Source: Mobula hypostoma (taxonomy: Eukaryota). Taken from it: a DNA stretch of 64,000 nucleotides. Of this stretch, positions 1,694 to 64,000 are shown piece by piece; the stretch's first letter is position 1, and each line of letters begins with the position of its first letter. The notes under the pieces were generated by a model, which was not told the origin of the DNA, did not search any database, and saw only the letters and a list, made by a program, of their open reading frames with translations. The stretch is taken from positions 806,001 to 870,000 of the forward strand of contig NC_086108.1 in assembly GCF_963921235.1 (NCBI RefSeq). The letters are read 5' to 3'. A program made the position numbers and the translations under genes.

Positions 1694-2191
1694 TGTTAGG
1701 ATGCTGGAGCAGGAATCCAGTTGCAGACCCAGTACTGTGCACACAGTGATATTAATTGAGTAACAAATCCCGAGGTGCAAACGAAGTCGACATCAAAGTT
1801 CAGGCAGAGATCAGAACATCCAGAGAGATCCAAAAACCAGAATCGGGAAATAGTCAGAGTCGATTTTCAGATGGGCAGAGTACAGATACAAATACTGGAA
1901 AGGCTCAGGAAAATTCCCTGGCACAATCTGGCAGCAATCAGGTGAAAACACAGGACTGAAATACACTGAACAGTAAACAGAGAGGCAGGTGATAGGTGGA
2001 GCACAATGAGACCCAGGCGGCAGCAAAACAGGTGATAATGAGAAACAGATGATAATGGAGTACTCAGTAACACAGAGGCCGGAGCAGAGCAGAGCAGGAG
2101 TGGGGACAGGAGCACATGGCAGTACAAAACCACAGACTGACAGCTAGGGGGAAACACTCAAAAAGACAGAGTTCAACTGGAGGTACTGACA
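1694..2191. mobile_element. Solo LTR in the PPP1R37 intron
   Basis: Ends are TGTTAG...CTGACA, flanked by the 5-bp direct repeat TAGCT (1689-1693 and 2192-2196). No coding content. Confidence 0.8.
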
Positions 2192-2214
2192 TAGCTCTCC
2201 ATTTCTCTTCTCAG

Positions 2215-3208
2215 GTAAAGAGCTTCATTGAAACTCAAAAGGCCCTGCTCACCGAGATCCAAAATGGTTGCAAAAGGAATTTCATTCTTGCAAAGGAAAA
2301 GGAAGAGAGAGAACAGAAGATGCGACAGTCTGCCTCAATGCCCGAGATCTCCGTGACTCTGTGCGATAAGACAGATGAGTTGCAAAATGTCCAAACCTGC
2401 CCAAGGGGCGAGGAATCAGGAAATGGAGGTGCCCAGGGAAGTGTTCCGAACATGACTGAGGACACTGAGCACTTGGATGGTGCTGATAAATCGAGGGTTT
2501 CTACCCTCTCCGTGGAATGTAATTTGACTGAACAAGATGAATCGGTGCCACAGGCTGGTCTGATCAAGCCACTTAACTCTGAACAACAGCAGGCTGCTTC
2601 AGAAATGCCTTCTGGGAAGGAGTCTGTCACGGATTCCAAGGCCGATGGTGTGGATAGCCCAGCCACAGTTGATAACCCGCAAGATAACACTGAATTATAT
2701 CCTGCAAAGTCGGAAAGCCCAGTCGCTGTCAGCCCGCCAGTGGAGGTCCCGTCACGAAACAATGAGAGGCTTGTATCCAGCCCAGGGAGAGGACACAAAG
2801 TCTTTGTGGTGACCAGAGTGGAAAGCCCACCGGAGGACCCCAGTAATCGTGACGCACAGTGGGGAGAAGAAGCACTGCAGAGCGAAAAGAATAGGACCAC
2901 AGATAATGAGGCAGAATCCCCCTTGGAGCCTTGTCAAGGTTCAGTACCAAGCACTACAGCAGCTTACACAGTTCCAGCCCCAGCCTCGGAAAGAAGTCTC
3001 CAATCCAGGAGCCTGCCGAATCAGGAAAAGCCGGTAGAGTACACTGAGCATGACTTTGAGACGGTCTGTGCTAAAGACTGTGATCATGTGATGCATGGGG
3101 GCACCTTACCGAATGGATTCAAAGCCGACCTTGTGCATAGACTGCCTGAATTAGCAGTGTTAGCAACAGGGACGGATGACAAAGTGTTGAGCTGCCACAT
3201 CGAGCAAG
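2215..3208 (+). CDS. PPP1R37: Protein phosphatase 1 regulatory subunit 37 (LRRC68), large penultimate coding exon
   Basis: The translation VKSFIETQKALLTEIQNGCKRN...SASMPE...VSSPGRGHKVFVVTRVESPPE...LPNG matches the PPP1R37 C-terminal region as I recall it. Acceptor ttctcttctcag ends at 2214; donor G|GTAAGG at 3209 (phase 1). Confidence 0.93.
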
Positions 3209-3606
3209 GTAAGGGTTATACTCTTGTTAAGGATCATTCTCGGGCTGTGTAGTAGTAATGCATAAACAGATGCTGGAAATCTAAACAACGCACACACAAA
3301 ATGCTGGAGGAAGTCGGCAGGTCCAGCAGCATCTATGGAGAGAAATAAACAGTTGACTTTGCGAGCTGAGACCCTTCTTTAGAACTGAGAAGGAGGGGGG
3401 AAGATGCCAGAATAAAAAGTTGTGGGGTGAGGAGGGAGAAGGAGGCAAGCTGGAAGGTGATGAGTGAAGCCAGGTGAGTGGGAAAAGCCAAAGACTGGAG
3501 AAGAAAGAATCTGATAGGAGAGGAGAGTGGACCAGAGGAGAAAGGGAAGGAGGAAGGGACCTCAGAGGGAATAATGAGCAGGTGAGAAGATATAAAAGGT
3601 CAGAGT

Positions 3607-4158
3607 TGTTGTTCGTCCATCGTTGATGTCGATGAAGACCTCGACACTATTATTGATGGTGTCGAGACTAGCGCTTGATTTGGATTTAAGTGAAGGAAAG
3701 TTGTGCAGTGTCAGCCTCACTCTCTCTTCCCAATTCCCATCTGGGTCCAGTGGCAAGACAGAGTCGAGGCGGCTGGAGATGGGACTAGGCGCAGTGGATG
3801 ATCAGGGCAACTTCTGTTCTACACGTTCCACGATGCTTGCAGAGACTGCCTTCTTGACCATTGGACCTTCCATTGGTCTCATCTGCTCAATCCACCGGAG
3901 TCTGTCTTCACATGCTGGGATAGACAACTCCCTATCTCACCGAGGGTTTGAGACCCGTCGGCTACCCTCACCTGGTTTAGCCGGCTCGTCGAAGCCATTG
4001 CCCGGGGTGTGGTCGCTGTCGCATGCAAACAGCTACGGGGAGCCACAGGTGAGAGCTGAGTGCCAGGTGGGGACCAAAGGTGGATTAACCGCCTTGAAAA
4101 GGACACGACGTGTTCCCCCACCAGAGGTGCTACCCCTCCCTGACACCCCATACACCCC
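3607..4158 (-). mobile_element. Non-autonomous RTE-derived retroposon, apparently full length
   Basis: 13-bp TSD AAAAGGTCAGAGT (3594-3606 and 4159-4171), (CAA)n-type 3' tail and RTE-like 5' UTR sequence. Confidence 0.85.
3967..4158 (-). ncRNA. HDV-like self-cleaving ribozyme fold at the element's 5' end
   Basis: P1 GGGGUGU/ACACCCC; P2 CUCACCUG/CAGGUGAG; P3 GGC/ACC (one mismatch); L3 starting UCC; P1.1 GG; P4 GGCUU/GAGCC; J4/2 GCUAA. All paired by hand. Confidence 0.72.
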
Positions 4159-4789
4159 AAAAGGTCAGAGTGGGGAATAGAGGAAGGGGGGGGGGTTGTT
4201 TACAGGAAGGAGAAATTGATATTCGTGCCATCAAGTTGGAGGCTACCCAGACAGAAGATAAGGTGTTGCTCCTTCACCTTGAGGGTGGCCTCCCCTTGGC
4301 ACTAGAGGAGGCCATGGACCGACGTGTCGAAGCAGGAATGGGAATTGCAATTGAAGTATTTGGCCATCAGAAGTTCCCACTTGTGGTGGATGGTGCAGAG
4401 CTGCTGGACGAAGTGGTCACCCAATTTACGATGGGCCGCACCAATATAGAGGAAGCCAACCACGGCTGACAAGCTCAATCTGCCCGAAGTGACTGGTTTT
4501 ATGGCACCAGTAACCTGTCTTTGCCCCTTCTCCTGTCAGTAGAAATGGTTCCACTGGGCTTAGTATCCAAGCCATACATGAAGGCCAGGATCTGGAATTT
4601 AACTTCCAACTGATTCTCCATGGCTAGTGAAACTCGAAATTGGATGTTGGATATTCTCAATCCTATTGAAACTACATAGGAAGACAGCAGCTAAATGTTC
4701 CTGCTATTAACTAATTGTTAAAGGTGTATCCCTGTCACTTAAAGCACATTGCAGGACAGATCTTTTTTGTCTATTACCCTTCTGTTTTA

Positions 4790-5890
4790 TAGAGTCATAG
4801 AATTCTACAGCACAAAAGTGGGCATTAGGTCCATCTAGTCTGTGTTGTTCTATTATTCTGCCTAGACCCATCGACCTGCACATGGACCATAGTTCTCCAT
4901 ACCCTTCCCATCAAATGATTGCATAGACTATGTTACTGCAATGCATTTTTTACTGGCCTTCCAAAGCAATCTCTTGACAAAGATCAACATTGCTCCTAGA
5001 CTTTTAAATGAAGCCAGGATGAGGGAGCTTATCACTCCCGCCCTAGCTATGCTGCATGGGCTTTTAGAATTGATTTTAAAATTCTCTTTCGTCAGAATCA
5101 AAATCAGGTTTAATATCACCGACATATGTGATGAAATTTGTTTAAACTTGTTTTTAAAGCCTTGTTCTCAATGGTCTGAGTCTGGAGTACAGAATCACTT
5201 TTGCTTTTTTAATCCTGCTCGCACTCTCAGGTCTTCTTTTGCCAGGCTTATAAATTTAAACAATCTCCCTCAAACGATAATTGGCAGGTCACTTTTTTTT
5301 GAACCACATTCCTAAATTGTGGAACTCAATACTAAATCTGTAAGGGATGCAGACTCAGTTGGCACTTTTATACGCCAGTTCAAAACCTATTTATTTAACC
5401 TTACTTTTAACTAACATTTTTTATCTTTTATTTTCATGTTTGCAATTAATCCCATTGTAAAGCACTTGGAATCACATCATCATCAGGTTTTTGCAGCTGT
5501 GGGGTTCTAACATTTTCTGTCATTTATTCTTCGTTTTATTTTCTCTCGGTTTCATGGATGTCTGTGAAGAGTATGGATTTCAAGTTGTATACTGTAAACA
5601 TTCTCTGATATTAAATTGAACAACTGTATGAAAATTGCTCCATAAATAAGTTGTTATTATTATTATTCCCATCCATGTACTTATCCAAAATTCTCTTAAA
5701 TGTTGAATTCAAACCCACATCCACCACTTTTGCTGGCAACTCGTTCCACACTGTCACCACCTTCATGTTCCACTCAAATCTTTTGCCTGTCTCCCTTAAC
5801 TCATAACATCTGGTTCTAGTTTCACCCCACCTCAGTAGAAAAAGCCTGCTTGCTTTTTATCTTATTTATACCCCTCATAATGTTGTATAT
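4790..5890 (-). mobile_element. CR1 3' end interrupted by an L2 insertion
   Basis: CR1 3' UTR sequence at 4790-4912 resumes at ~5666 and resembles 10710-11150 and 55970-56350. Confidence 0.7.
4913..5665 (+). mobile_element. L2 LINE 3' fragment
   Basis: DYVTAM/DYCNA-like L2 C-terminal remnant, (TTA)n tail at ~5655, and TTCCCATC repeated at both junctions. Confidence 0.65.
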
Positions 5891-7696: not shown

Positions 7697-9505
7697 GTCA
7701 TCATCATCATCAGCTGCCGTGCCCAGTTTGAGCTTTGACTGCCATGGCCCACACACTCCTGTTTCGGGTCAAGTGTACCAATTCATTGGTGTTCATTTCC
7801 AGTTCTCTGGCTGCTGTCTCCATCATCATTTATCTTTTGTCTTCCTCTCGCTTTCTTCCCTTCAATCTTCCCCATAATTACCGTGCATTTTAACTGCTCT
7901 TTCCTAATCACATTTCCAATGAAGTTACGTTGCCATTTCATGATCTCATACATTATCTCTCTTTTTGTGTTTGCTCTGTTCATGACATCCTCGTTAGATA
8001 TTCGTTTCGTCCATGATATTCTTTGCATCCTCCTCAAAAACCACATCTCTGCTGCTTCAATTTGTTTCCTCATGTTACTAGATATTGTCCAACATTCTGA
8101 GCCATATAACATAACTGGATAAACATAACATTTCAGTATTCTGAGGTGGGTTGTCATGCCTAGTTTAGTATTGGTCAGTATACTCTTCATTCTCGTAAAG
8201 ATGTCTTTTGCCATCCCCATTCTTCTTTTGATGTCCATATCACATCTGCCATCTGATGTCACCCAGCTTCCTAAGTAGCAAAAGTTCCGTACTTGTTTTA
8301 TGCCTTCCCCTTTTATTCTCAGCCTGCAGATAGGATTCTCCTTCTTTTTGGATATCACCATACATTCTGTCTTTTTGCAATTGATAGACTCATTTTTGCA
8401 CTTTCTTCAACAATTATATCAATTAAATTTTGTAGTTCTTCCTCCGTACTTGCAATTAACGCAGTGTCATCTGCATATCTAAAATTATTGACGTTTTCAC
8501 CGTCAACTTTGATTCCCAAGATGTATCTTGTTTTTTGTAATATTGTTTCACTGTACACATTAAATAAATCAGGGGAGAAAACACACCCTTGTCTGATGCC
8601 TGTCTTGATTTTCGTAAACTGACTCACTTCTCCATCTATTCTTAAAGCGGCAGTTTGTTCCCAGTACAGATTTCTGATTAGGCAGAGGTCTTTCGAATCT
8701 AGATCTAGAGTTTTCTGTAATATTTCAAATAACTTATTGTGCTTCACTTTATCAAATGCTTTTGTGTAGTCGATAAAACAAACAAATCTTTTTGCACTTG
8801 AATAGCTCATTCTGATAGTATCCTTAACATCAATATTGTGTTTCTTGTACCTTTGTCTTTCACAAATCCACATTGTTCTTTGCCTATTTCAGCTTGTGTC
8901 TTACTTTTAGCTCTTGTCATCAAAATTCTCAGAAGTATCTTTGTGATGTGACTCGTTAAACTTATGGTCCTATGTAATTCACATTCTAATGCTCCAGGTT
9001 TCTTAGGAAAAGTGATAAATACTGATTTTGTCATCTCTTCTGATACTATTCCAGTCTCATAAATGTTATTGATTAAATCAGTAAGTTTTTCAATTCCATA
9101 ATCTTCAAGGGCGATAATTTGTTCTATTACTAATTCATTAGGACCTGCTGCCTTTCCTTTCTTCATCTTATTTATTGCATTACAGACTTCAGATTTTAAA
9201 ATACTTGGACCTTCAATGTTTTTCTTAATTTTTAGTTTTTTCCTCGATCGTCTTCAAACAATTCCTGAATATACTCAGTTCATCTGTTCATAATCTCATC
9301 TTTTTCCATGATAATGGTACCGTCCTTTGCTTTCAAAATTCCACCTGAAGAACAGAGGAGCTTTTTACCAGTGATATTCTTGATTTGTTGATGTAACCTT
9401 TTTGGATCAGTAATAGGGATTCTTTCTATTTGCTCACATTCCTGGTTCAACCATTCTTTGGCTTTTTGACATAAGCTTTTAACTTATGTCAAAAAGCCAA
9501 AGAAG
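7697..9505 (-). mobile_element. RTE (BovB-like) LINE, 5'-truncated and frameshifted
   Basis: ORFs 7783-9166 contain FIDYTKAFDKV, GIRQGCVFSP and RYADDTALIA. (GAT)n tail at 7698-7712. 12-bp TSD AATGGTGAAGTT (7685-7696 and 9506-9517). Confidence 0.93.
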
Positions 9506-9920: not shown

Positions 9921-10042
9921 GAATATGGGACTTTAATCAATTGAACCATTGCAAGCTTCTTAATACTCTAAAATCCAGTTGCCTTTTTCATTTCTGTGTT
10001 CTTTCCCTCTCTGTTAATAGATATGATTGTTTTTTTTTAAAG

Positions 10043-10125
10043 AGTTTACAAGTCCTAAAACTGAAAAGGAGTTGGAGAAGTTACTGCTGGAAGCGAGCCA
10101 GGAAACCTGTCGTGAAACATCCTGA
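10043..10125 (+). CDS. PPP1R37: PPP1R37 last coding exon (exon extends to 10135)
   Basis: The phase-1 join G|AG gives EFTSPKTEKELEKLLLEASQETCRETS*, matching the PPP1R37 terminus (EKELEELLLEASQE) as I recall it. Acceptor t9-aaag; donor GTAAGG at 10136. Confidence 0.9.
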
Positions 10126-32569: not shown

Positions 32570-34300
32570 ATAGTCATAGTCATACTTTATTGATCCCGGG
32601 GGAAATTGGTTTTCGTTACAGTTGCTCCATAAATAATAAACAGTAAGAGAACCATAAATAGTTAAATAGTAATATGTAAATTATGCCAGCAAATTATGAA
32701 ATAAGTCCAGGACCAGCCTATTGGCTCAGGGTGTCTGACCCTCCAAGGGAGGAGTTGTAAAGTTTGATGGCCACAGGCAGGAATGACTTCCTATGATGCT
32801 CTGAGTTGCATCTCGGTGGAATGAGTCTCTGGCTGAATGTACTCCTGTGCCCACCCAGTACATTATGTAGTGGATGGGAGACGTTGTCCAAGATGGCATG
32901 CAACTTGGACAGCATCCTCTTTTCAGACACCATCGTCAGAGAGTCCAGTTCCATTCCCACAACCTCACTGGCATTATGAATGAGTTTGTTGATCCTGTTG
33001 GTGTCTGCTACCCTCAGCCTGCTGCCCCAGCACACAACAGCAAACGCTATCGCACTGGCCACCACAGACTCGTAGAACATCCTCAGGATCGTCCGATAGA
33101 TGTTGAAGGACCTCAGTCTCCTCAGGAAATAGAGATGGCTCTGACCCTTCTTGTAGACAGCCTCAGTGTTCTTTGACCAGTCCAGTTTATTGTCAATTCG
33201 TATCCCCAGGTATTTGTAATCCTCCACCATGACCACACTGACCCCCTGGATGGAAACAGGGGTCACTGGTACCTTAGCCCTCCTCAGGTCTACCACCAGC
33301 TCCTTAGTCTTTTTCACATAAAGCTGCAGATAATTCTGCTCACACCATGTGACAAAGTTTCCTACCGTAGCCCTGTACTCAACCTCATCTCCCTTGCTGA
33401 TGCATCTAACTATGGCAGAGTCATCCGAAAACTTCTGAAGATGACAAGACTCTGTGCAGTAGTTGAAGTCCAAGGTGTAAATGGTGAAGAGAAAGGGAGA
33501 CAAGACAGTCCCCTGTGGAGCCCCAGTGCTGCTGATCACTCTGTCAGACACACAGTGTTGCAAGCACACGTACTGTGATCTGCCAGTCAGGTAATCAGGA
33601 ATCCATGATACCAGGAAAGCATCCACCTGCATCGCTGTCAGCTTCTCCCCCAGCAGAGCAGGGCGGATGGTGTTGAACGCACTGGAGAAGTCAAAAAACA
33701 TGATCCTCACAGTGCTCGCTGGCTTGTCCAGGTAGGCGTAGACACGGTTCAGCAGGTAGACGATGGCATCCTCAACTCCTAGTTGGGGCTGGTAGGTGAA
33801 CTGGAGGGGATCTAAGTGTGGCCTGACCATAGGCCAGAGCAGCTCCAGAACAAGTCTCTCCAGGGTCTTCATGATGTGGGAGGTCAATGCCACCGGTCTG
33901 TAGTCATTAAGGCCGCTGGGGCACGGCGTCTTCGGCACAGGGACGAGGCAGGATGTCTTCCACAGTACAGGAACCCTCCAGAACCTCAGGCTCATGTTGA
34001 ATACATGGCAAAGTACTCCACATAGCTGAGGGGCACAGGCTTTGAGCACCCTGGTACTGACACCATCCGGTCCTGCAGCCTTGCTTGGGTTGAGATGTTT
34101 CAGCTGTCTTCTCACCTATTCAGCTGTGACGCCCACCGTGGTGGTTTCGTGTGGGGAAGGGGTATAGTCATGAGAGCAGGGTGGGGGACTGTGAGGAGGG
34201 GTAGGAGGGGAGAGTGGAGTATGTGTTGGTTGGGGGCCGACAACAGATGGCTCATGTGGGGGATGGGCAGGGGTCACAATGTCAAATCTGTTAAAGAACC
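32570..34300 (-). mobile_element. Rex1/Babar LINE family A, copy 1
   Basis: Uninterrupted 465-aa RT ORF 32718-34115 ([27 protein letters not shown]), (CTATGA)n tail, and upstream FFNRFD reaching ~34300. Confidence 0.95.
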
Positions 34301-48487: not shown

Positions 48488-50010
48488 ACCCAAGCAAGGC
48501 TGCAGGACGGGATGGTGTCAGTACCAGAGTGCTCAAAGCCTGTGCCCCTCAGCTATGTGGAGTACTTCGTCATGTATTCAACCTGAGCCTGAGGCTCCGG
48601 AAGGTTCCTGTGGAAGACGTCCTGCCTCGTCCCTGTGCCGAAGACGCCGCGCCCCAGCGACCTCAATGACTACAGACCGGTGGCATTGACCTCCCACATC
48701 ATGAAGACCCTGGAGAGACTTGTTCTGGAGCTGCTCCAGCCTATGGTCAGGCCACACTTAGATCCCCTCCAGTTCACCTACCAGCCCCGACTAGGAGTTG
48801 AGGATGCCATCGTCTACCTGCTGAACCGTGTCTACGCCCACCTGGACAAGCCAGTGAGCACTGTGAGGGTCATGTTTTTTGACTTCTCCAGTGCGTTCAA
48901 CACCATCCACCCTGCTCTGCTGGGGGAGAAGCTGACAGCGATGCAGGTGGATGCTTTCCTGGTATCATGGATTCTTGATTACCTGACTGGCAGACCACAG
49001 TACGTGTGCTTGCAACACTGTGTGTCTGACAGAGTGATCAGCAGCACTGGGGCTCCACAGGGGACTGTCTTGTCTCCCTTTCTCTTCACCATTTACACCT
49101 TGGACTTCAACTACTGCACAGAGTCTTGTCATCTTCAGAAGTTTTCTGATGACTCTGCCATAGTTGGATGCATCAGCAAGGGAGATGAGGCTGAGTACAG
49201 GGCTACAGTAGGAAACTTTGTCACATGGTGTGAGCAGAATTATCTGCAGCGTAATGTGAAAAAGACTAAGGAGCTGGTGGTAGACCTGAGGAGGGCTAAG
49301 GTACCAGTGACCCCTGTTTCCATCCAGGGGGTCAGTGTGGACATGGTGAAGGATTACAAATACCTGGGGATACAAATTGACAATAAACTGGACTGGTCAA
49401 AGAACACTGAGGCTGTCTATAAGAAAGGTCAGAGCCGTCTCTATTTCTTGAGGAGACTGAGGTCCTTTAACATCTGCCGGACGATGCTGAGGATGTTCTA
49501 CGAGTCTGTGGTGGCCAGTGCTATTATGTTTGCTGTTGTGTGCTGGGGCAGCAGGCTGAGGGTAGCAGACACCAACAGAATCAACAAACTCATTCGTAAG
49601 GCCAGTGATGTTGTGGGGATGGAACTGGACTCTCTGACGGTGGTGTCTGAAAAGAGGATGCTGTCTAAGTTGCATGCCATCTTGGACAATGTCTCCCATC
49701 CACTACATAATGTACTGGTTGGGCACAGGAGTACATTCAGCCAGTAACTCATTCCACCGAGATGCAGCACAGAGCGTCAGAGGAAGTCATTCCTGCCTGT
49801 GGCCATCAAACTTTACAACTCCTCCCTTGGAGGGTCAGACACCCTGAGCCAATAGGCTGGTCCTGGACTTATTTCATAATTTACTGGCATAATTTACATA
49901 TTACTATTTAACTATTTATGGTTTTATTACTATTTATTATTTATGATGCAACTGTAACGAAAACCAATTTCCCCCTGGGATCAATAAAGTATGACTATGA
50001 CTATGACTAT
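48488..50010 (+). mobile_element. Rex1/Babar LINE family A, copy 2
   Basis: ORF 48635-49747 is nearly identical to 32718-34115, with a (CTATGA)n tail. Confidence 0.95.
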
Positions 50011-57749: not shown

Positions 57750-60700
57750 ACTGCAGAGATGGGATGGGGATTGTTATTGTTACTGTATTTTACTGTGAGG
57801 GAGGGGATGGGGATTGTTATTGTTACTGTATTTTACGGTGGGGTAGGGGATGATGATTGTTATTGTTACTGTATTTTACGGTGGGGGAGGGCATGGGGAT
57901 TGTTATTGTTACTGTATTTTACTGAGGGGGAGGGGATGGGGATTGTTATTGTTACTGTATTTTACTGTGGGGGAGGGGATGCGGATTGTTATTGTTACTG
58001 TATTTTACTGTGGGGACGGGAATGGGGATTGTTATTGTTACTGTATTTTCCTGAGGGAGAGGGGATGGGGATTGTTATTGTTACTGTATTTTACTGTGGG
58101 GGGGGACGGGGATTGTTATTGTTACTGTATTTTACTGAGGGGGAGGGGATGGGGATTGTTATTGTTACTGTATTTTACTGTGGGGAGGGGATGGGGACTG
58201 TTATTGTTACTGTATTTTACTGTGAGGGAGGGGATGGGGATTGTTATTGTTATTGTTACTGTATTTTACTGTGGTGAGGGGATGGGAATTGTTATTGTTA
58301 CTGTATTTTACTGTGGGGAAGGGATGGGGATTGTTATTGTTACTGTATTTTACTGTGGGGGAGGGGATGGGGATTGTTATTGTTACTGTATTTTACTGTG
58401 GGGAGGGAATGGGGACTGTTATTCTTACTGTATTTTACTGTGAGGGAGGGGATAGGGATTGTTATTGTTACTGTATTTTACTGTGGGGGAGGGGATGGGG
58501 ACTGTTATTGTTACTGTATTTTACTGTGGGGGGGACGGGGATTGTTATTGTTACTGTATTTTACTGAGGGGGAGGGGATGGGGATTGTTATTGTTACTGT
58601 ATTTTACTGTGGGGAGGGGATGGGGACTGTTATTGTTACTGTATTTTACTGTGAGGGAGGGGATGGGGATTGTTATTGTTATTGTTACTGTATTTTACTG
58701 TGGTGAGGGGATGGGAATTGTTATTGTTACTGTATTTTACTGTGGGGAAGGGATGGGGATTGTTATTGTTACTGTATTTTACTGTGGGGGAGGGGATGGG
58801 GATTGTTATTGTTACTGTATTTTACTGTGGGGAGGGAATGGGGACTGTTATTCTTACTGTATTTTACTGTGAGGGAGGGGATAGGGATTGTTATTGTTAC
58901 TGTATTTTACTGTGGGGGAGGGGATGGGGATTGTTATTGTTACTGTATTTTACTGTGGGGGGGGACGGGGATTGTTATTGTTACTGTATTTTACTGAGGG
59001 GGAGGGGATGGGGATTGTTATTGTTACTGTATTTTACTGTGGGGAGGGGATGGGGACTGTTATTGTTACTGTATTTTACTGTGAGGGAGGGGATGGGGAT
59101 TGTTATTGTTATTGTTACTGTATTTTACTGTGGTGAGGGGATGGGAATTGTTATTGTTACTGTATTTTACTGTGGGGAAGGGATGGGGATTGTTATTGTT
59201 ACTGTATTTTACTGTGGGGGAGGGGATGGGGATTGTTATTGTTACTGTATTTTACTGTGGGGAGGGAATGGGGACTGTTATTCTTACTGTATTTTACTGT
59301 GAGGGAGGGGATAGGGATTGTTATTGTTACTGTATTTTACTGTGGGGGAGGGGATGGGGACTGTTATTGTTACTGTATTTTACTGTGGGGAGGGGATGGG
59401 GACTGTTATTGTTACTGTATTTTACTGTGAGGGAGGGGACGGGGATTGTTATTGTTACTGTATTTACTGTGGGTGAGGGGATGGGGATTGTTATTGTTAC
59501 TGTATTTTACTGTGGGGGAGGGGACAGGGATTTTTATTGTTACTCTATTTCACTGAAGCGGCGGGAATGGGGATTGTTATTGTTACTGTATTTTACTGTG
59601 GGGGGGGACGGGGATTGTAATTGTTACTGTTTTTTACTGTGGGGGAGGGGATGGGGATTGTTATTTTTACTGTATTTTACTGTGGGGGAGGGGATTGGTA
59701 TTGTTATTGTTAATGTATTTTAAAGTGGGGGAGGGGATGGGGATTGTTATTGTTACTGTATTTTCCTGAGGGGGAGGGGATGGGGATTGTTATTGTTACT
59801 GTATTTTACTGAGGGGGAGGGGATGGGGATTGTTTTTGTTACTGTATTTTACTGTGGGGAGGGGATGGGGACTGTTATTGTTACTGTATTTTACTGTGAG
59901 GGAGGGGATGGGGATTGTTATTGTTATTGTTACTGTATTTTACTGTGGGGGAGGGGATGGGGATTGTTATTGTTACTGTATTTTACTGTGGGGAGGGGAT
60001 GGGGATTGTTATTGTTACTGTATTTTACTGTGGGGGAGGGGATGGGGATTGTTATTATTACTGTATTTTACTGTGGTGAGGGGATGGGGATTGTTATTGT
60101 TACTGTATTTTACTGTGGGGAGGGGATGGGGATTGTTATTGTTACTGTATTTTACTGTGGGGGAGGGAATGGTGATTGTTATTGTTACTGTATTTTACTG
60201 TGGGGAGGGGATGGGGACTGTTATTGTTACTGTATTTTACTGTGAGGGAGGGGATAGGGATTGTTATTGTTACTGTATTTTACTGTGGGGGAGGGGATGG
60301 GGACTGTTATTGTTACTGTATTTTACTGTGGGGAGGGGGTGGGGACTGTTATTGTTACTGTATTTTACTGTGAGGGAGGGGAAGGGGATTGTTATTGTTA
60401 CTGTATTTACTGTGGGTGAGGGGATGGAGATTGTTATTGTTACTGTATTTTACTGTGGGGGAGGGGACAGGGATTTTTATTGTTACTCTATTTCACTGAA
60501 GCGGCGGGAATGGGGATTGTTATTGTTACTGTATTTTACTGTGGGGGAGGGAATGGGGATTGCTATTGTTACTGTATTTTACTGTGGGAGGGGATGGGGA
60601 TTGTTATTGTCACTGTATTTTACTGTGGGGAGGGGACGGGGATTGTCATTGTTACTGTTTTTTACCGTGGGGGAGGGGATGGGGATTGTTATTGTTACTG

Positions 60701-63700
60701 TATTTTACTGTGGGGAGGGGATGGGGACTGTTATTGTTACTGTATTTTACTGTGAGGGAGGGGATGGGGATTGTTATTGTTACTGTATTTTCCAGAGGGG
60801 GAGGGGATGGGGATTGTTATTGTTACTGTATTTTACTGTGGGGAGGGGATGGGGACTGTTATTGTTACTGTATTTTACTGTGAGGGAGGTGATGGGGATT
60901 GTTATTGTTATTGTTACTGTATTTTACTGTAGGGGAGGGGATGGGGACTGTTATTGTTACTGTATTTTACTGAGGGGGAGGGGATGGGGATTGTTATTGT
61001 TACTGTATTTTACTGTGGGGAGGGGATGGGGACTGTTATTGTTACTGTATTTTACTGTGGGGAGGGGATGGGGATTGTTATTGTTAGTGTATTTTACTGT
61101 GGGGGAGGGGATGGGGATTGTTATTGTTACTGTATTTTACTGTGGTGAGGGGATGGGGATTGTTATTGTTACTGTATTTTACTGTGGGGGAAGGGACGGG
61201 GATTGTTATTGTTACTGTATTTTACTGTAGGGGAGGGGATGGGGACTGTTATTGTTACTGTATTTTACTGTGGGGAGGGGATGGGGACTGTTATTGTTAC
61301 TGTATTTTACTGTGGGGAGGGGATGGGGATTGTTATTGTTAGTGTATTTTACTGTGGGGGAGGGGATGGGGATTGTTATTGTTACTGTATTTTACTGTGG
61401 TGAGGGGATGGGGATTGTTATTGTTACTGTATTTTACTGTGGGGGAAGGGACGGGGATTGTTATTGTTACTGTATTTTACTGTGGGGGAGGGGATGGGGA
61501 TTGTTATTGTTACTGTATTTTACTGTAGGGGGGACAGGGATTGTTATTGTTGCTGTATTTTACTGTGGGGGGGACGGGGATTGTTATTGTTACTATATTT
61601 TACTGAGGGAGAGGGGATGGGGATTGTTATTGTTACTGTATTTTACTGTGGGATAGGGGATGAGGATTGTTATTCTTACTGTATTTTACTGTGGGGAGGG
61701 GATGGGGATTGTGATTGTTACTGTATTTTACTGTGGGGAGGGGATGGGGATTGTTATTGTTACTGTATTTTACTGTGGGGGAGGGGATGGGGACTGTTAT
61801 TGTTACTGTATTTTACTGTGGGGAGGGGATGGGGATTGTTATTGTTAGTGTATTTTACTGTGGGGGAGGGGATGGGGATTGTTATTGTTACTGTATTTTA
61901 CTGCGGGGGAGGGAACGGGGATTGTTATTGTTACTGTATTTACTGTGGGGGAGGGGATGGGATTGTTATTGTCACTGTATTTTACTGAGGGGGAGTGGAT
62001 GGGGATTGTTATTGTTACTGTATTTTAATGTGAGGGAGGGGATGGGGATTGTTATTGTTACTGTATTTTACTGTGGGGGGGACGGGGATTGTTATTGTTA
62101 CTGTATTTTACTGTGGGGAGGGGACGGGGATTGTTATTGTTACTGTTTTTTACTGTGGGGGAGGGGATCGGGATTGTTATTGTTACTCTATTTTACTGTG
62201 GGGGAGGGGATTGGTATTGTTATTGTTATTGTTACTGTATTTTACTGTGGGGAGGGGATGGGGATTGTTATTGTTACTGTATTTTACTGTGGGGGAGGGG
62301 ATGGGGATTGTTATTGTTACTGTATTTTACTGTGGGGAGGGGATGGGGATTGTTATTGTTACTGTATTTTACTGTGAGGGAGGGGATGGGGATTGTTATT
62401 GTTACTGTATTTTACTGAGGGGGAGGGGATGGGGATTGTTATTGTTAATGTATTTTAAAGTGGGGGAGGGGATGGGGATTGTTATTGTTACTGTATTTTA
62501 CTGTGGGGGAGGGGATGGGGATTGTTATTGTTACTGTATTTTACTGTGGAGAGGGGATGGGGATTGTTATTGTTACTGTATTTTACTGTGGGGGAGGGGA
62601 TGGCGATTGTTATTGTTACTGTATTTTACTGAGGGGGAGGGGATGGGGATTGTTATTGTTACTGTATTTTACTGAGGGGGAGGGGATGGGAATTGTTATT
62701 GTTACTGTATTTTGCTGTGGGGGGGGACGGGGATTGTTATTGTTACTGTATTTTACTGTGGAGGGGACGGGGATTGTTATTGTTACTGTATTTTACTGAG
62801 GGAGAGGGGATGGGGATTGTTATTGTTACTGTATTTTCCTGAGGGAGAGGGAAAGGGGATTATTATTGTTACTGTATTTTACTGTGGGGAGGGGATGGGG
62901 ATTGTTATTGTTACTATATTTTACTGTGGGGAGGGGACGGGGATTGTTATTGTTACTGTATTTTACTTTGGGGGTGGGGATGGGGATTGTTATTGTAACT
63001 GTATTTTACTGTGGGGGAGGGGATGGGGATTGTTATTGTTACTGTATCTTACTGTGGTGAGGGGATGGGAATTGTTATTGTTACTGTATTTTACTGTGGG
63101 GAGGGGATGGGGATTGTTATTGTTACTGTAATTTACTGTGGGGAGGGGATGGGGATTGTTATTGTTACTGTATTATACTGAGGGGGGGATGGAGATTGTT
63201 ATTGTTACTGTATTTTACTGTGGGGAGGGAAGGGGGACTTTTATTGTTACTGTATTTTACTGTGAGGGAGGGAATGGGGATTGTTATTGTTACTGTATTT
63301 TACTGTGGGGGAGGGGATGGGGATTGTTATTGTTACTGTATTTTACTGTGGGGGACGGGATGGCGATTGTGATTGTTACTGTATTTTACTGTGGGGGAGG
63401 GGATGGGGATTGTTATTGTTACTGTATTTTACCGTGGGGGAGGGAATGGGGATTGTTATTGTTACTGTATTTTACTGTGGGGGAGGGTCAGGGATTGTTA
63501 TTATTACTGTATTTTACTGTGGGGGATGGAATGGTGATTGTGATTGTTACTGTATTTTACTGCGGGGGAGTGCATGGGGATTGTGATTGTTACTGTATTT
63601 TACTGTGGGTGAGGGGATGGTATTTGTTATTGTTACTGTATTTTACTGTGGGGGAGGGGATGGGGATTGTTATTGTTACTGTATTTTACCGTGGGGGAGT

Positions 63701-64000
63701 GGATGGGGTTTGTTATTGTTACTGTATTTTACTGTGGGGAAGGGGATCGGGATTGTTATTGTTACTGTATTTTACTGTGGGGGAGGGGATGGGGATGTTA
63801 TTGTTACTGTATTTTACCGTGGGGGAGGGTCAGGGATTGTTATTGTTACTGTATTTAACTGAGGGGGAGGGGATGGGGATTGTTATTGTTACTGTAGTTT
63901 ACTCAGGGGGAGGGCATGGGGACTGTTATTGTTACTGTATTTTACTGAGGGGAGGGGATGGGGATTGTTATTGTTACCGTATTTTACCGTGGGGGAGGGG
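57750..64000. repeat. Minisatellite, ~41-43-bp unit, >6.2 kb, continuing off the window
   Basis: Consensus GGGGATTGTTATTGTTACTGTATTTTACTGTGGGGGAGGGGAT, roughly 145 units. Confidence 0.99.

Follow-up and report, generated by a model that had tools for sequence, protein, structure and literature searches.

A Short Bipartite RTE-Clade Retroposon in the Ray Mobula hypostoma Begins With a Hepatitis Delta Virus-Like Ribozyme Fold

In a 64,000-nucleotide stretch of the Mobula hypostoma genome (NC_086108.1, positions 806,001 to 870,000; hereafter the window), the first 195 bases of a 552-bp minus-strand repeat fold like the ribozyme of hepatitis delta virus (HDV), but have an extra hairpin in loop L3. 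The fold begins at the very first base of the element, G1, and most sampled copies of the repeat family start at or near this base. We consider it likely that the repeat represents a bipartite RTE-clade retroposon, shortened by an internal deletion, that retained the 5′ HDV-like ribozyme of its parent, and that its 5′ end is generated when host-driven transcripts cleave themselves at G1.

Anatomy of the Element and Its Insertion Site

The element ends in a short (CAA)n-type tail and lies between perfect 13-bp target-site duplications (TSDs; Table 1), which agrees with a prior interpretation made from the letters of the window without database searches (the sequence-only reading). Both flanks belong to one older repeat and match an uninterrupted copy of that repeat at another locus. 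An exon at window positions 2215–3208 (+) shares 98% identity with the PPP1R37 protein of a ray and, together with the last PPP1R37 coding exon at 10039–10122 (+), makes up the last two coding exons of the gene; searches of the Protein atlas and Pfam with the host exon returned no match, nor did a search of a phage sequence collection. The element sits within the older repeat in the last PPP1R37 intron in antisense orientation; the ribozyme strand is therefore absent from the host pre-mRNA. Judging from its weakened P3 helix, the window copy is probably a decayed passenger with an impaired ribozyme. Farther along the window, positions 57761–64000 hold a 43-bp tandem array (146 copies, 89% matches) with strong strand skew that runs past the window end.

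Table 1. Features of the element in the window copy, in window coordinates.
Feature	Position	Strand	Description
Whole element	3607–4158	−	552 bp; family 1 copy, 94.8% identical to the 30-copy majority; 12-bp internal deletion
5′ TSD	4159–4171	−	13 bp; flanks overlap by 13 bp in the uninterrupted host repeat (locus L005)
3′ TSD	3594–3606	−	13 bp
P1 5′ arm	4152–4158	−	G4158 is the predicted first base after cleavage; start of 18–20 of 30 position-ordered copies
P1 3′ arm	4004–4010	−	Pairs with 4158–4152
J1/2	4057–4151	−	95 nt; single long interrupted hairpin, outer stem 4148–4139/4067–4058
P2 5′ arm	4045–4056	−	95% of alignment cells paired, no double change
P2 3′ arm	3964–3976	−	One bulged C
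P3 5′ arm	4042–4044	−	Pairs with 4013–4011
P3 3′ arm	4011–4013	−	A4013 is a G-to-A CpG change relative to the family majority
L3	4014–4041	−	28 nt; core U4041 C C C C G4036, then inserted hairpin 4033–4029/4019–4015
P1.1 GG	4002–4003	−	Pairs with C4040 and C4039
P4	3982–3997	−	6 bp, loop of 4 nt; families 1 and 2 differ by compensated changes at three pairs
J4/2	3977–3981	−	GCUAA; C3980 at the HDV C75 position, invariant in 20 of 20 alignment rows
RTE 5′UTR-derived remainder	3655–3963	−	Last segment is the junction hairpin's 5′ arm; similar to RTE-11_PSi
RTE 3′-end-derived part	3607–3654	−	3′ arm of the junction hairpin, terminal stem-loop and (CAA)n tail; resembles the 3′ ends of RTE-1_PSi and RTE-3_AMi

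The HDV-Like Fold

The sequence-only reading had proposed an HDV-like fold starting exactly at the element's 5′ end, and every helix that it named was recovered in place. P1 has 7 bp and opens with a G1–C pair, P3 carries the single mismatch that had been reported (C4042·A4013), the two Gs available for P1.1 face C4040 and C4039 (pairing with G4003 and G4002, respectively), L3 starts with UCC (as UCCCCG) and continues into the inserted hairpin, and the putative catalytic C falls at 3980. Three elements needed adjustment in length only. P2 contains the arms originally described and extends beyond them (11 bp, 4056–4046/3974–3964, plus U4045–A3976 across a one-C bulge), P4 likewise is present and longer, at 6 bp (3997–3992/3987–3982), and J1/2 is long, as had been said, but measures 95 nt rather than about 100 nt.

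The L3 insertion had been called atypical, and so it is. L3 of HDV-like ribozymes is usually 7–8 nt long; here it spans 26–28 nt, with a hairpin inserted directly after U-C-C-N-N-G-U-A, where HDV has a bulged base. Since L3 exceeds the usual length and Rfam returned no HDV-type match, we file the structure as a variant HDV-like ribozyme. When J4/2 is compared with C-R-R-A, the C and both As are invariant in all 20 rows of the alignment described below and the second base is U or C, a non-purine; antigenomic HDV also has U after the catalytic C. A published HDV descriptor requires a purine at this position (PMC6326823). The L3 U and G, five bases apart (U4041 and G4036), are present in at least 90% of the 20 rows and correspond to the reverse wobble described as a feature of HDV-like ribozymes (PMC6326823, PMC3774820); families 2 and 3 have A in place of the C preceding this G.

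A second copy of the P1 5′ arm, absent from the sequence-only reading, occurs at 4149–4143 and also satisfies the HDV descriptor. The 10-bp outer stem of J1/2 buries this arm, and freeing it costs 8–12 kcal/mol of J1/2 folding.

The descriptor encodes the usual HDV constraints, except that its L3 limit was raised to 40 nt once the sequence had been seen; with L3 limited to 10 nt it finds nothing on the minus strand of the window. The window copy matches only when one P3 mismatch is allowed, and the majority sequences of families 1 and 2 match strictly. Dinucleotide shuffling gave matches in 5 of 3,000 shuffles of the window copy and 2 of 3,000 shuffles of the family majority, none of either set with G1 at the first base. 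The relaxed descriptor also matches two other sites in the window, 49513–49757 (+) and 32816–32930 (−), which we take as chance matches in 128 kb (both strands). Because of these sites a descriptor match alone is weak evidence, and we place weight on its coincidence with the first base of the element and on conservation within the family. Rfam returned no HDV-type match in the window at gathering score, and at E values up to 10 the region 3500–4250 gave a single unrelated chance match, none of HDV type. The minimum-free-energy fold is not unusual (z = −1.0), as computed by a method that cannot form pseudoknots.

Copies of Family 1 Share Their 5′ End

The element is present in thousands of copies in this 3.48-Gb genome. 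A DNA search produced 4,712 candidates; the 40 that were scored were all near full length, and the 39 other than the window copy were 92–93% identical to it. A 24-mer from the core (P2/P3/L3) has 1,793 exact matches genome-wide, and a control had none. The 30 best copies average 97.4% identity to their own majority, compared with 94.8% for the window copy, and define a full-length unit of about 562 bp, a non-coding retroposon that we call family 1. P1, P2 and P3 are all kept in the family majority, which has G at 4013 and hence a perfect P3; P3 is intact in 28 of the 30 best copies, and the A4013 of the window copy reflects CpG decay private to few copies.

The 5′ ends were described from the 30 matches that come first when the 1,793 are ordered along the genome. 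All of them lie on one contig and two form one tandem locus; each contains nt 104–127, by which shorter truncations are excluded from the sample. Homogeneous 5′ ends had been named as an expectation of the ribozyme, and 26 of these 30 copies start within 7 nt of G1, with BLAST and a stricter walk in agreement. Starts at nt 1 itself number 20 by BLAST and 18 by the stricter walk; two copies start at nt 9. Among the 30 there is no start at nt 10, no shared sequence upstream of G1 and no long element. Automatic calling found TSDs of at least 7 bp in 21 of the 30 position-ordered and 23 of the 30 best copies (44 of 60).

Insertion junctions show microhomology and extra bases, and R2 elements that are cut at their own 5′ end show similar junctions (PMC3774820). 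Of 35 copies that start at G1, 27 have a T directly before it (background 0.27, p = 1e-9). We rejected this T as a part of the element, given that it mostly falls within the TSD and is found in front of copies starting at nt 2 as well; it may reflect a nick preference or an added base. An intact ribozyme core was found in 10 of 30 and 9 of 30 sampled copies. No selection on inserted copies was seen, with non-CpG divergence at 1.1% in the core and elsewhere. Near-identical sequence also occurs in contig runs of several other organisms.

Individual family 1 loci vary in arrangement. One is a head-to-tail pair 68 bp apart (L069/L070), in another an inverted ribozyme fragment sits immediately upstream of G1 (L076), and a third is deleted from within the L3 hairpin to nt 404 (L052).

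Conservation of the Fold in Sister Families

A search for sister families, using a pattern on the P3 and P1 arms that forced a different P4, gave 50 matches, 20 of which were fetched. These comprised three family 1 variants, one copy of a second family (76% identical to family 1), 12 older copies of a third (mostly 71–80% identical to family 1) and four loci of an unrelated repeat (L082–L085) that have a chance 14-mer in common and were dropped. After 20 further family 2 copies had been fetched, an alignment of 20 rows was built, with six, eight and six rows for families 1, 2 and 3, including locus L089 and five family 3 loci.

In the core, families 1 and 2 agree at every one of 55 positions, versus 231 of 310 (75%) downstream (Fisher p = 6e-7, for a core chosen after the alignment was seen). 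Identity between them is 84/95 in J1/2, 17/24 in the variable part of L3 and 11/21 in J1.1/4-P4. Over the whole alignment, 93.7% of cells pair, and double-sided changes affect 10 of 64 pairs, about five of them at the family level (three in P4 and two in J1/2). This count of double-changed pairs was matched or exceeded in 29 of 500 shuffles, and the pair statistics count related sequences. No compensatory change was found in P1, P2, P3, P1.1 or the L3 hairpin among the 20 rows and three families, so the case for these helices is one of conservation. The L3 hairpin is paired in 97.8% of cells over the three families while its loop sequence varies, and the P1.1 CC/GG pairing is kept in all three (89% of cells). 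All three families retain C3980, the U and G of L3 and the two P1.1 pairs, and the neighbors of these positions vary; change falls at sites where HDV-like ribozymes tolerate it, namely L3 positions 4–5, J1.1/4, P4 and J1/2. The register is settled by families 2 and 3, where the P1 3′ arm is followed by no more than two Gs; an alternative shifted by one base (P3 as UGG/CCA) was discarded, the third G being absent from both families.

RTE Origin and the Long Form

In the repeat names used here we take PSi to stand for turtle and AMi for alligator. The body of the element matches an RTE 5′UTR and its tail matches RTE 3′ ends in the supplement of Kojima (2018), in line with the non-autonomous RTE origin suggested earlier. 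Aligned by eye with that supplement, nt 357–505 of the family 1 majority agree with RTE-11_PSi 370–519 at 139 of 150 positions, with the similarity continuing into the junction hairpin's 5′ arm, and the last ~45 nt resemble RTE-1_PSi 3726–3767 and RTE-3_AMi 3854–3893. In the window, the family 1 body at 3666–3814 (−) shares about 93% identity over 150 nt with RTE-11_PSi of a distant vertebrate, a level that either horizontal transfer or strong constraint could explain. The 562-bp unit has no reverse transcriptase or endonuclease reading frame; its longest frames (112–115 codons) are not kept in family 2, and a 115-codon frame running into the tail was dismissed as chance on that ground.

A family 1 parent LINE was not found in the genome: 20 DUF6451-bearing RTE loci carry other tails, and two tail patterns, the second of which is effectively one constraint, gave 44 and 14 matches that look like short-element variants, with no cluster of foreign upstream sequence. 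Model R1 likewise found no relative in 19 DUF6451-bearing RTE loci, in L051 or in L082–L085. In family 2, three of 21 copies extend into longer sequence and five of 21 have other deletion points. A correctly oriented 3′-end motif lies 1.5–6.8 kb downstream of 18 of 40 extension matches, eight of them at 3.40–3.50 kb, which by coordinates implies a family 2 long form of about 4.1 kb that is presumably autonomous. RTEs in Kojima (2018; PMC5786205) are of this size.

The internal deletion that shortened the RTE lies in the loop of a hairpin (window 3640–3665, −) whose 5′ arm comes from the RTE 5′UTR and whose 3′ arm comes from the 3′ end (12 bp, family 1). Five family 2 copies (L114, L116, L117, L118 and L120) have differing deletion points, all within a longer complementarity between the 5′UTR and the 3′ end. 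The arrangement suggests that bipartite RTEs may arise when reverse transcriptase jumps across a long-range stem that circularizes the RNA.

RTE sequences of other lineages were also encountered. Broken RTE-like reverse transcriptase frames at window 7783–9253 (−) belong, by eye, to another lineage, and one piece scanned with Pfam gave no match. L051 holds an other-lineage RTE at 1760–4813 (−) with a 1,018-codon open frame (APE, RT and DUF6451), and on visual inspection its leader (~4850–4960) contains a compact HDV-like motif in decay, one with no relation to model R1.

Proposed Mechanism and Alternatives

Neither a tRNA head nor an A or B box nor an Rfam small-RNA match was found in the element, and families 1 and 2 have a T4 run at nt 59–60, which excludes transcription by RNA polymerase III. 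This goes part of the way toward the promoter-less state proposed in the sequence-only reading, but an internal RNA polymerase II promoter that overlaps the ribozyme has a precedent in Pr77 of L1Tc/NARTc. In the reading we favor, source copies would be transcribed from outside, by read-through of RNA polymerase II. The long J1/2 hairpin would fold first and hide the second P1 arm, leaving the first seven bases to form P1; the nested double pseudoknot would then assemble, and the additional helix would project from L3 immediately past the conserved U...G pair. By analogy with HDV chemistry, C3980 would act as the general acid and the RNA would be cut 5′ of G1. An RTE protein supplied in trans would bind the 3′ stem-loop and tail and prime reverse transcription at a nick. 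Reverse transcription would run off at G1 with formation of a 7–15 bp TSD, so that new copies would begin at or just after G1, retain the whole ribozyme and be able to seed further rounds. A ribozyme so placed can make the 5′ end only; the earlier statement that the element excises itself went too far.

It is possible, but in our judgment unlikely, that the fold is real and that an internal RNA polymerase II promoter sets the 5′ end. The HDV-like structure would then be slow or inactive owing to the L3 insertion, and kept because it protects the 5′ end, binds protein or serves the parent LINE in translation. There is precedent for such an arrangement: Pr77 of L1Tc and NARTc is internal promoter and ribozyme in one (PMC4035085, PMC3383444), some well-folded trypanosome examples were inactive in vitro (PMC4035085), and non-catalytic roles of such folds are on record (PMC6765202, PMC13708176). 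An internal promoter would also be expected to yield the same 5′-end pattern, and the J1/2 sequence (84/95) is kept more than a dispensable loop needs. Against this reading, three families hold the C at the catalytic position, the U and G of L3 and the two P1.1 pairs constant while neighboring positions vary. The junctions also speak against it. A copied cap is expected to leave an extra G, from what is known of L1; here the extra junction bases mostly end in T and an unexplained extra G is not evident, though the run of Gs at the start of the element would mask one.

Two further readings are far less probable. An active ribozyme might use the second P1 arm, always or as a switchable alternative, and cut 5′ of nt 10 (4149). 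Either arm satisfies the descriptor, in the window copy as in the two family majorities, and the two of 30 copies that start at nt 9 could represent G10 plus an added T; yet nt 1 is the start of 18–20 of 30 copies and nt 10 of none, nt 1–9 could not persist under habitual cutting at nt 10, and the arm lies within a 10-bp stem that takes 8–12 kcal/mol to open. We regard this reading as very improbable, and hold it to be more improbable still that the HDV likeness is chance pairing in a G+C-rich 5′UTR. A chance origin would sit comfortably with the unremarkable folding energy (z = −1.0, from a method without pseudoknots), with the two other window sites matched by the relaxed descriptor and with the lack of an Rfam match, but not with the failure of all 3,000 shuffles to match at the first base, the 55/55 core identity and the compensated changes in P4 between families.

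Self-cleavage at G1 by a ribozyme inherited from the RTE parent is thus the reading we prefer. If the element does cleave, L3 of HDV-like ribozymes tolerates a helix of ~19 nt beside the active site, for which descriptors and Rfam make no provision, and ribozymes of this kind are undercounted; the intact core in about a third of sampled copies (10/30) would then also predict selection against sense-oriented intronic insertions. A broader proposal we put forward tentatively, as one that may well prove wrong: an active, undescribed HDV-like subtype with a conserved L3 helix and a decoy P1 arm could head a whole vertebrate RTE lineage, spanning rays and, to go by similarity of the body, turtles, crocodilians and the marsupial RTESINE/MAR4 elements. 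Existing models would miss it, hundreds of intact self-cleaving RNAs per genome would stand unannotated, and the L3 helix might be a module through which the RTE protein docks or is controlled. RTE 5′UTRs are in use in RNA-based gene-insertion tools (PMC13708176).

Comparison With Known Systems

RTE and baggins elements are reported to carry HDV-like ribozymes at their 5′ ends (Ruminski et al., 2011, as cited in PMC6765202, PMC3774820 and PMC5786205), where the clade, the exact 5′-end position and the proposed release from host transcripts are the same as here. Kojima (2018; PMC5786205) described the bipartite non-autonomous families RTESINE1/2, MAR4_MD, WALLSI3 and RTE-N and proposed a 5′ ribozyme as the reason for their kept LINE 5′ end. 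Like the ray element, they are headless, ~550 bp long and composed of a 5′UTR joined to a ~45-nt RTE 3′ end, with body and tail similar in sequence; they differ in that the portions of PMC5786205 consulted show no ribozyme fold for those families, and three ribozyme-core motifs are absent from its supplement, which holds SINE-LINE alignments only. The ray element provides a concrete vertebrate case for Kojima's proposal that headless bipartite RTEs survive by keeping the LINE 5′ ribozyme.

The closest functional parallel is found in the R2 SIDEs of Drosophila, short internally deleted LINE derivatives for which self-cleavage has been shown (Eickbush and Eickbush, 2012; PMC3414825). They too combine a 5′ HDV-like ribozyme with a 3′ recognition segment, a large J1/2 and compensatory helix changes. 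R2 SIDEs, however, belong to the R2 clade, are rDNA-specific, are co-transcribed by RNA polymerase I and exist in few copies, whereas the ray element is of the RTE clade, is dispersed in thousands of copies in a vertebrate, has the L3 helix and carries a ribozyme predicted from its sequence. NARTc, RIME and SIDER, which bear the Pr77 hallmark, are likewise dispersed non-autonomous retroposons headed by HDV-like ribozymes, several of them active (PMC4035085); in contrast to the ray element they derive from the trypanosomatid L1Tc/ingi clade, with an unrelated, compact 77-nt ribozyme that doubles as a promoter. Our literature search found no L3 insertion and no HDV-like case from a shark or ray, although the central papers on RTE ribozymes may already show an L3 insertion. 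Short derivatives headed by a ribozyme are already established for R2 and L1Tc/ingi; the principle is not a new mechanism, and the L3 helix is the unusual part of the ray element.
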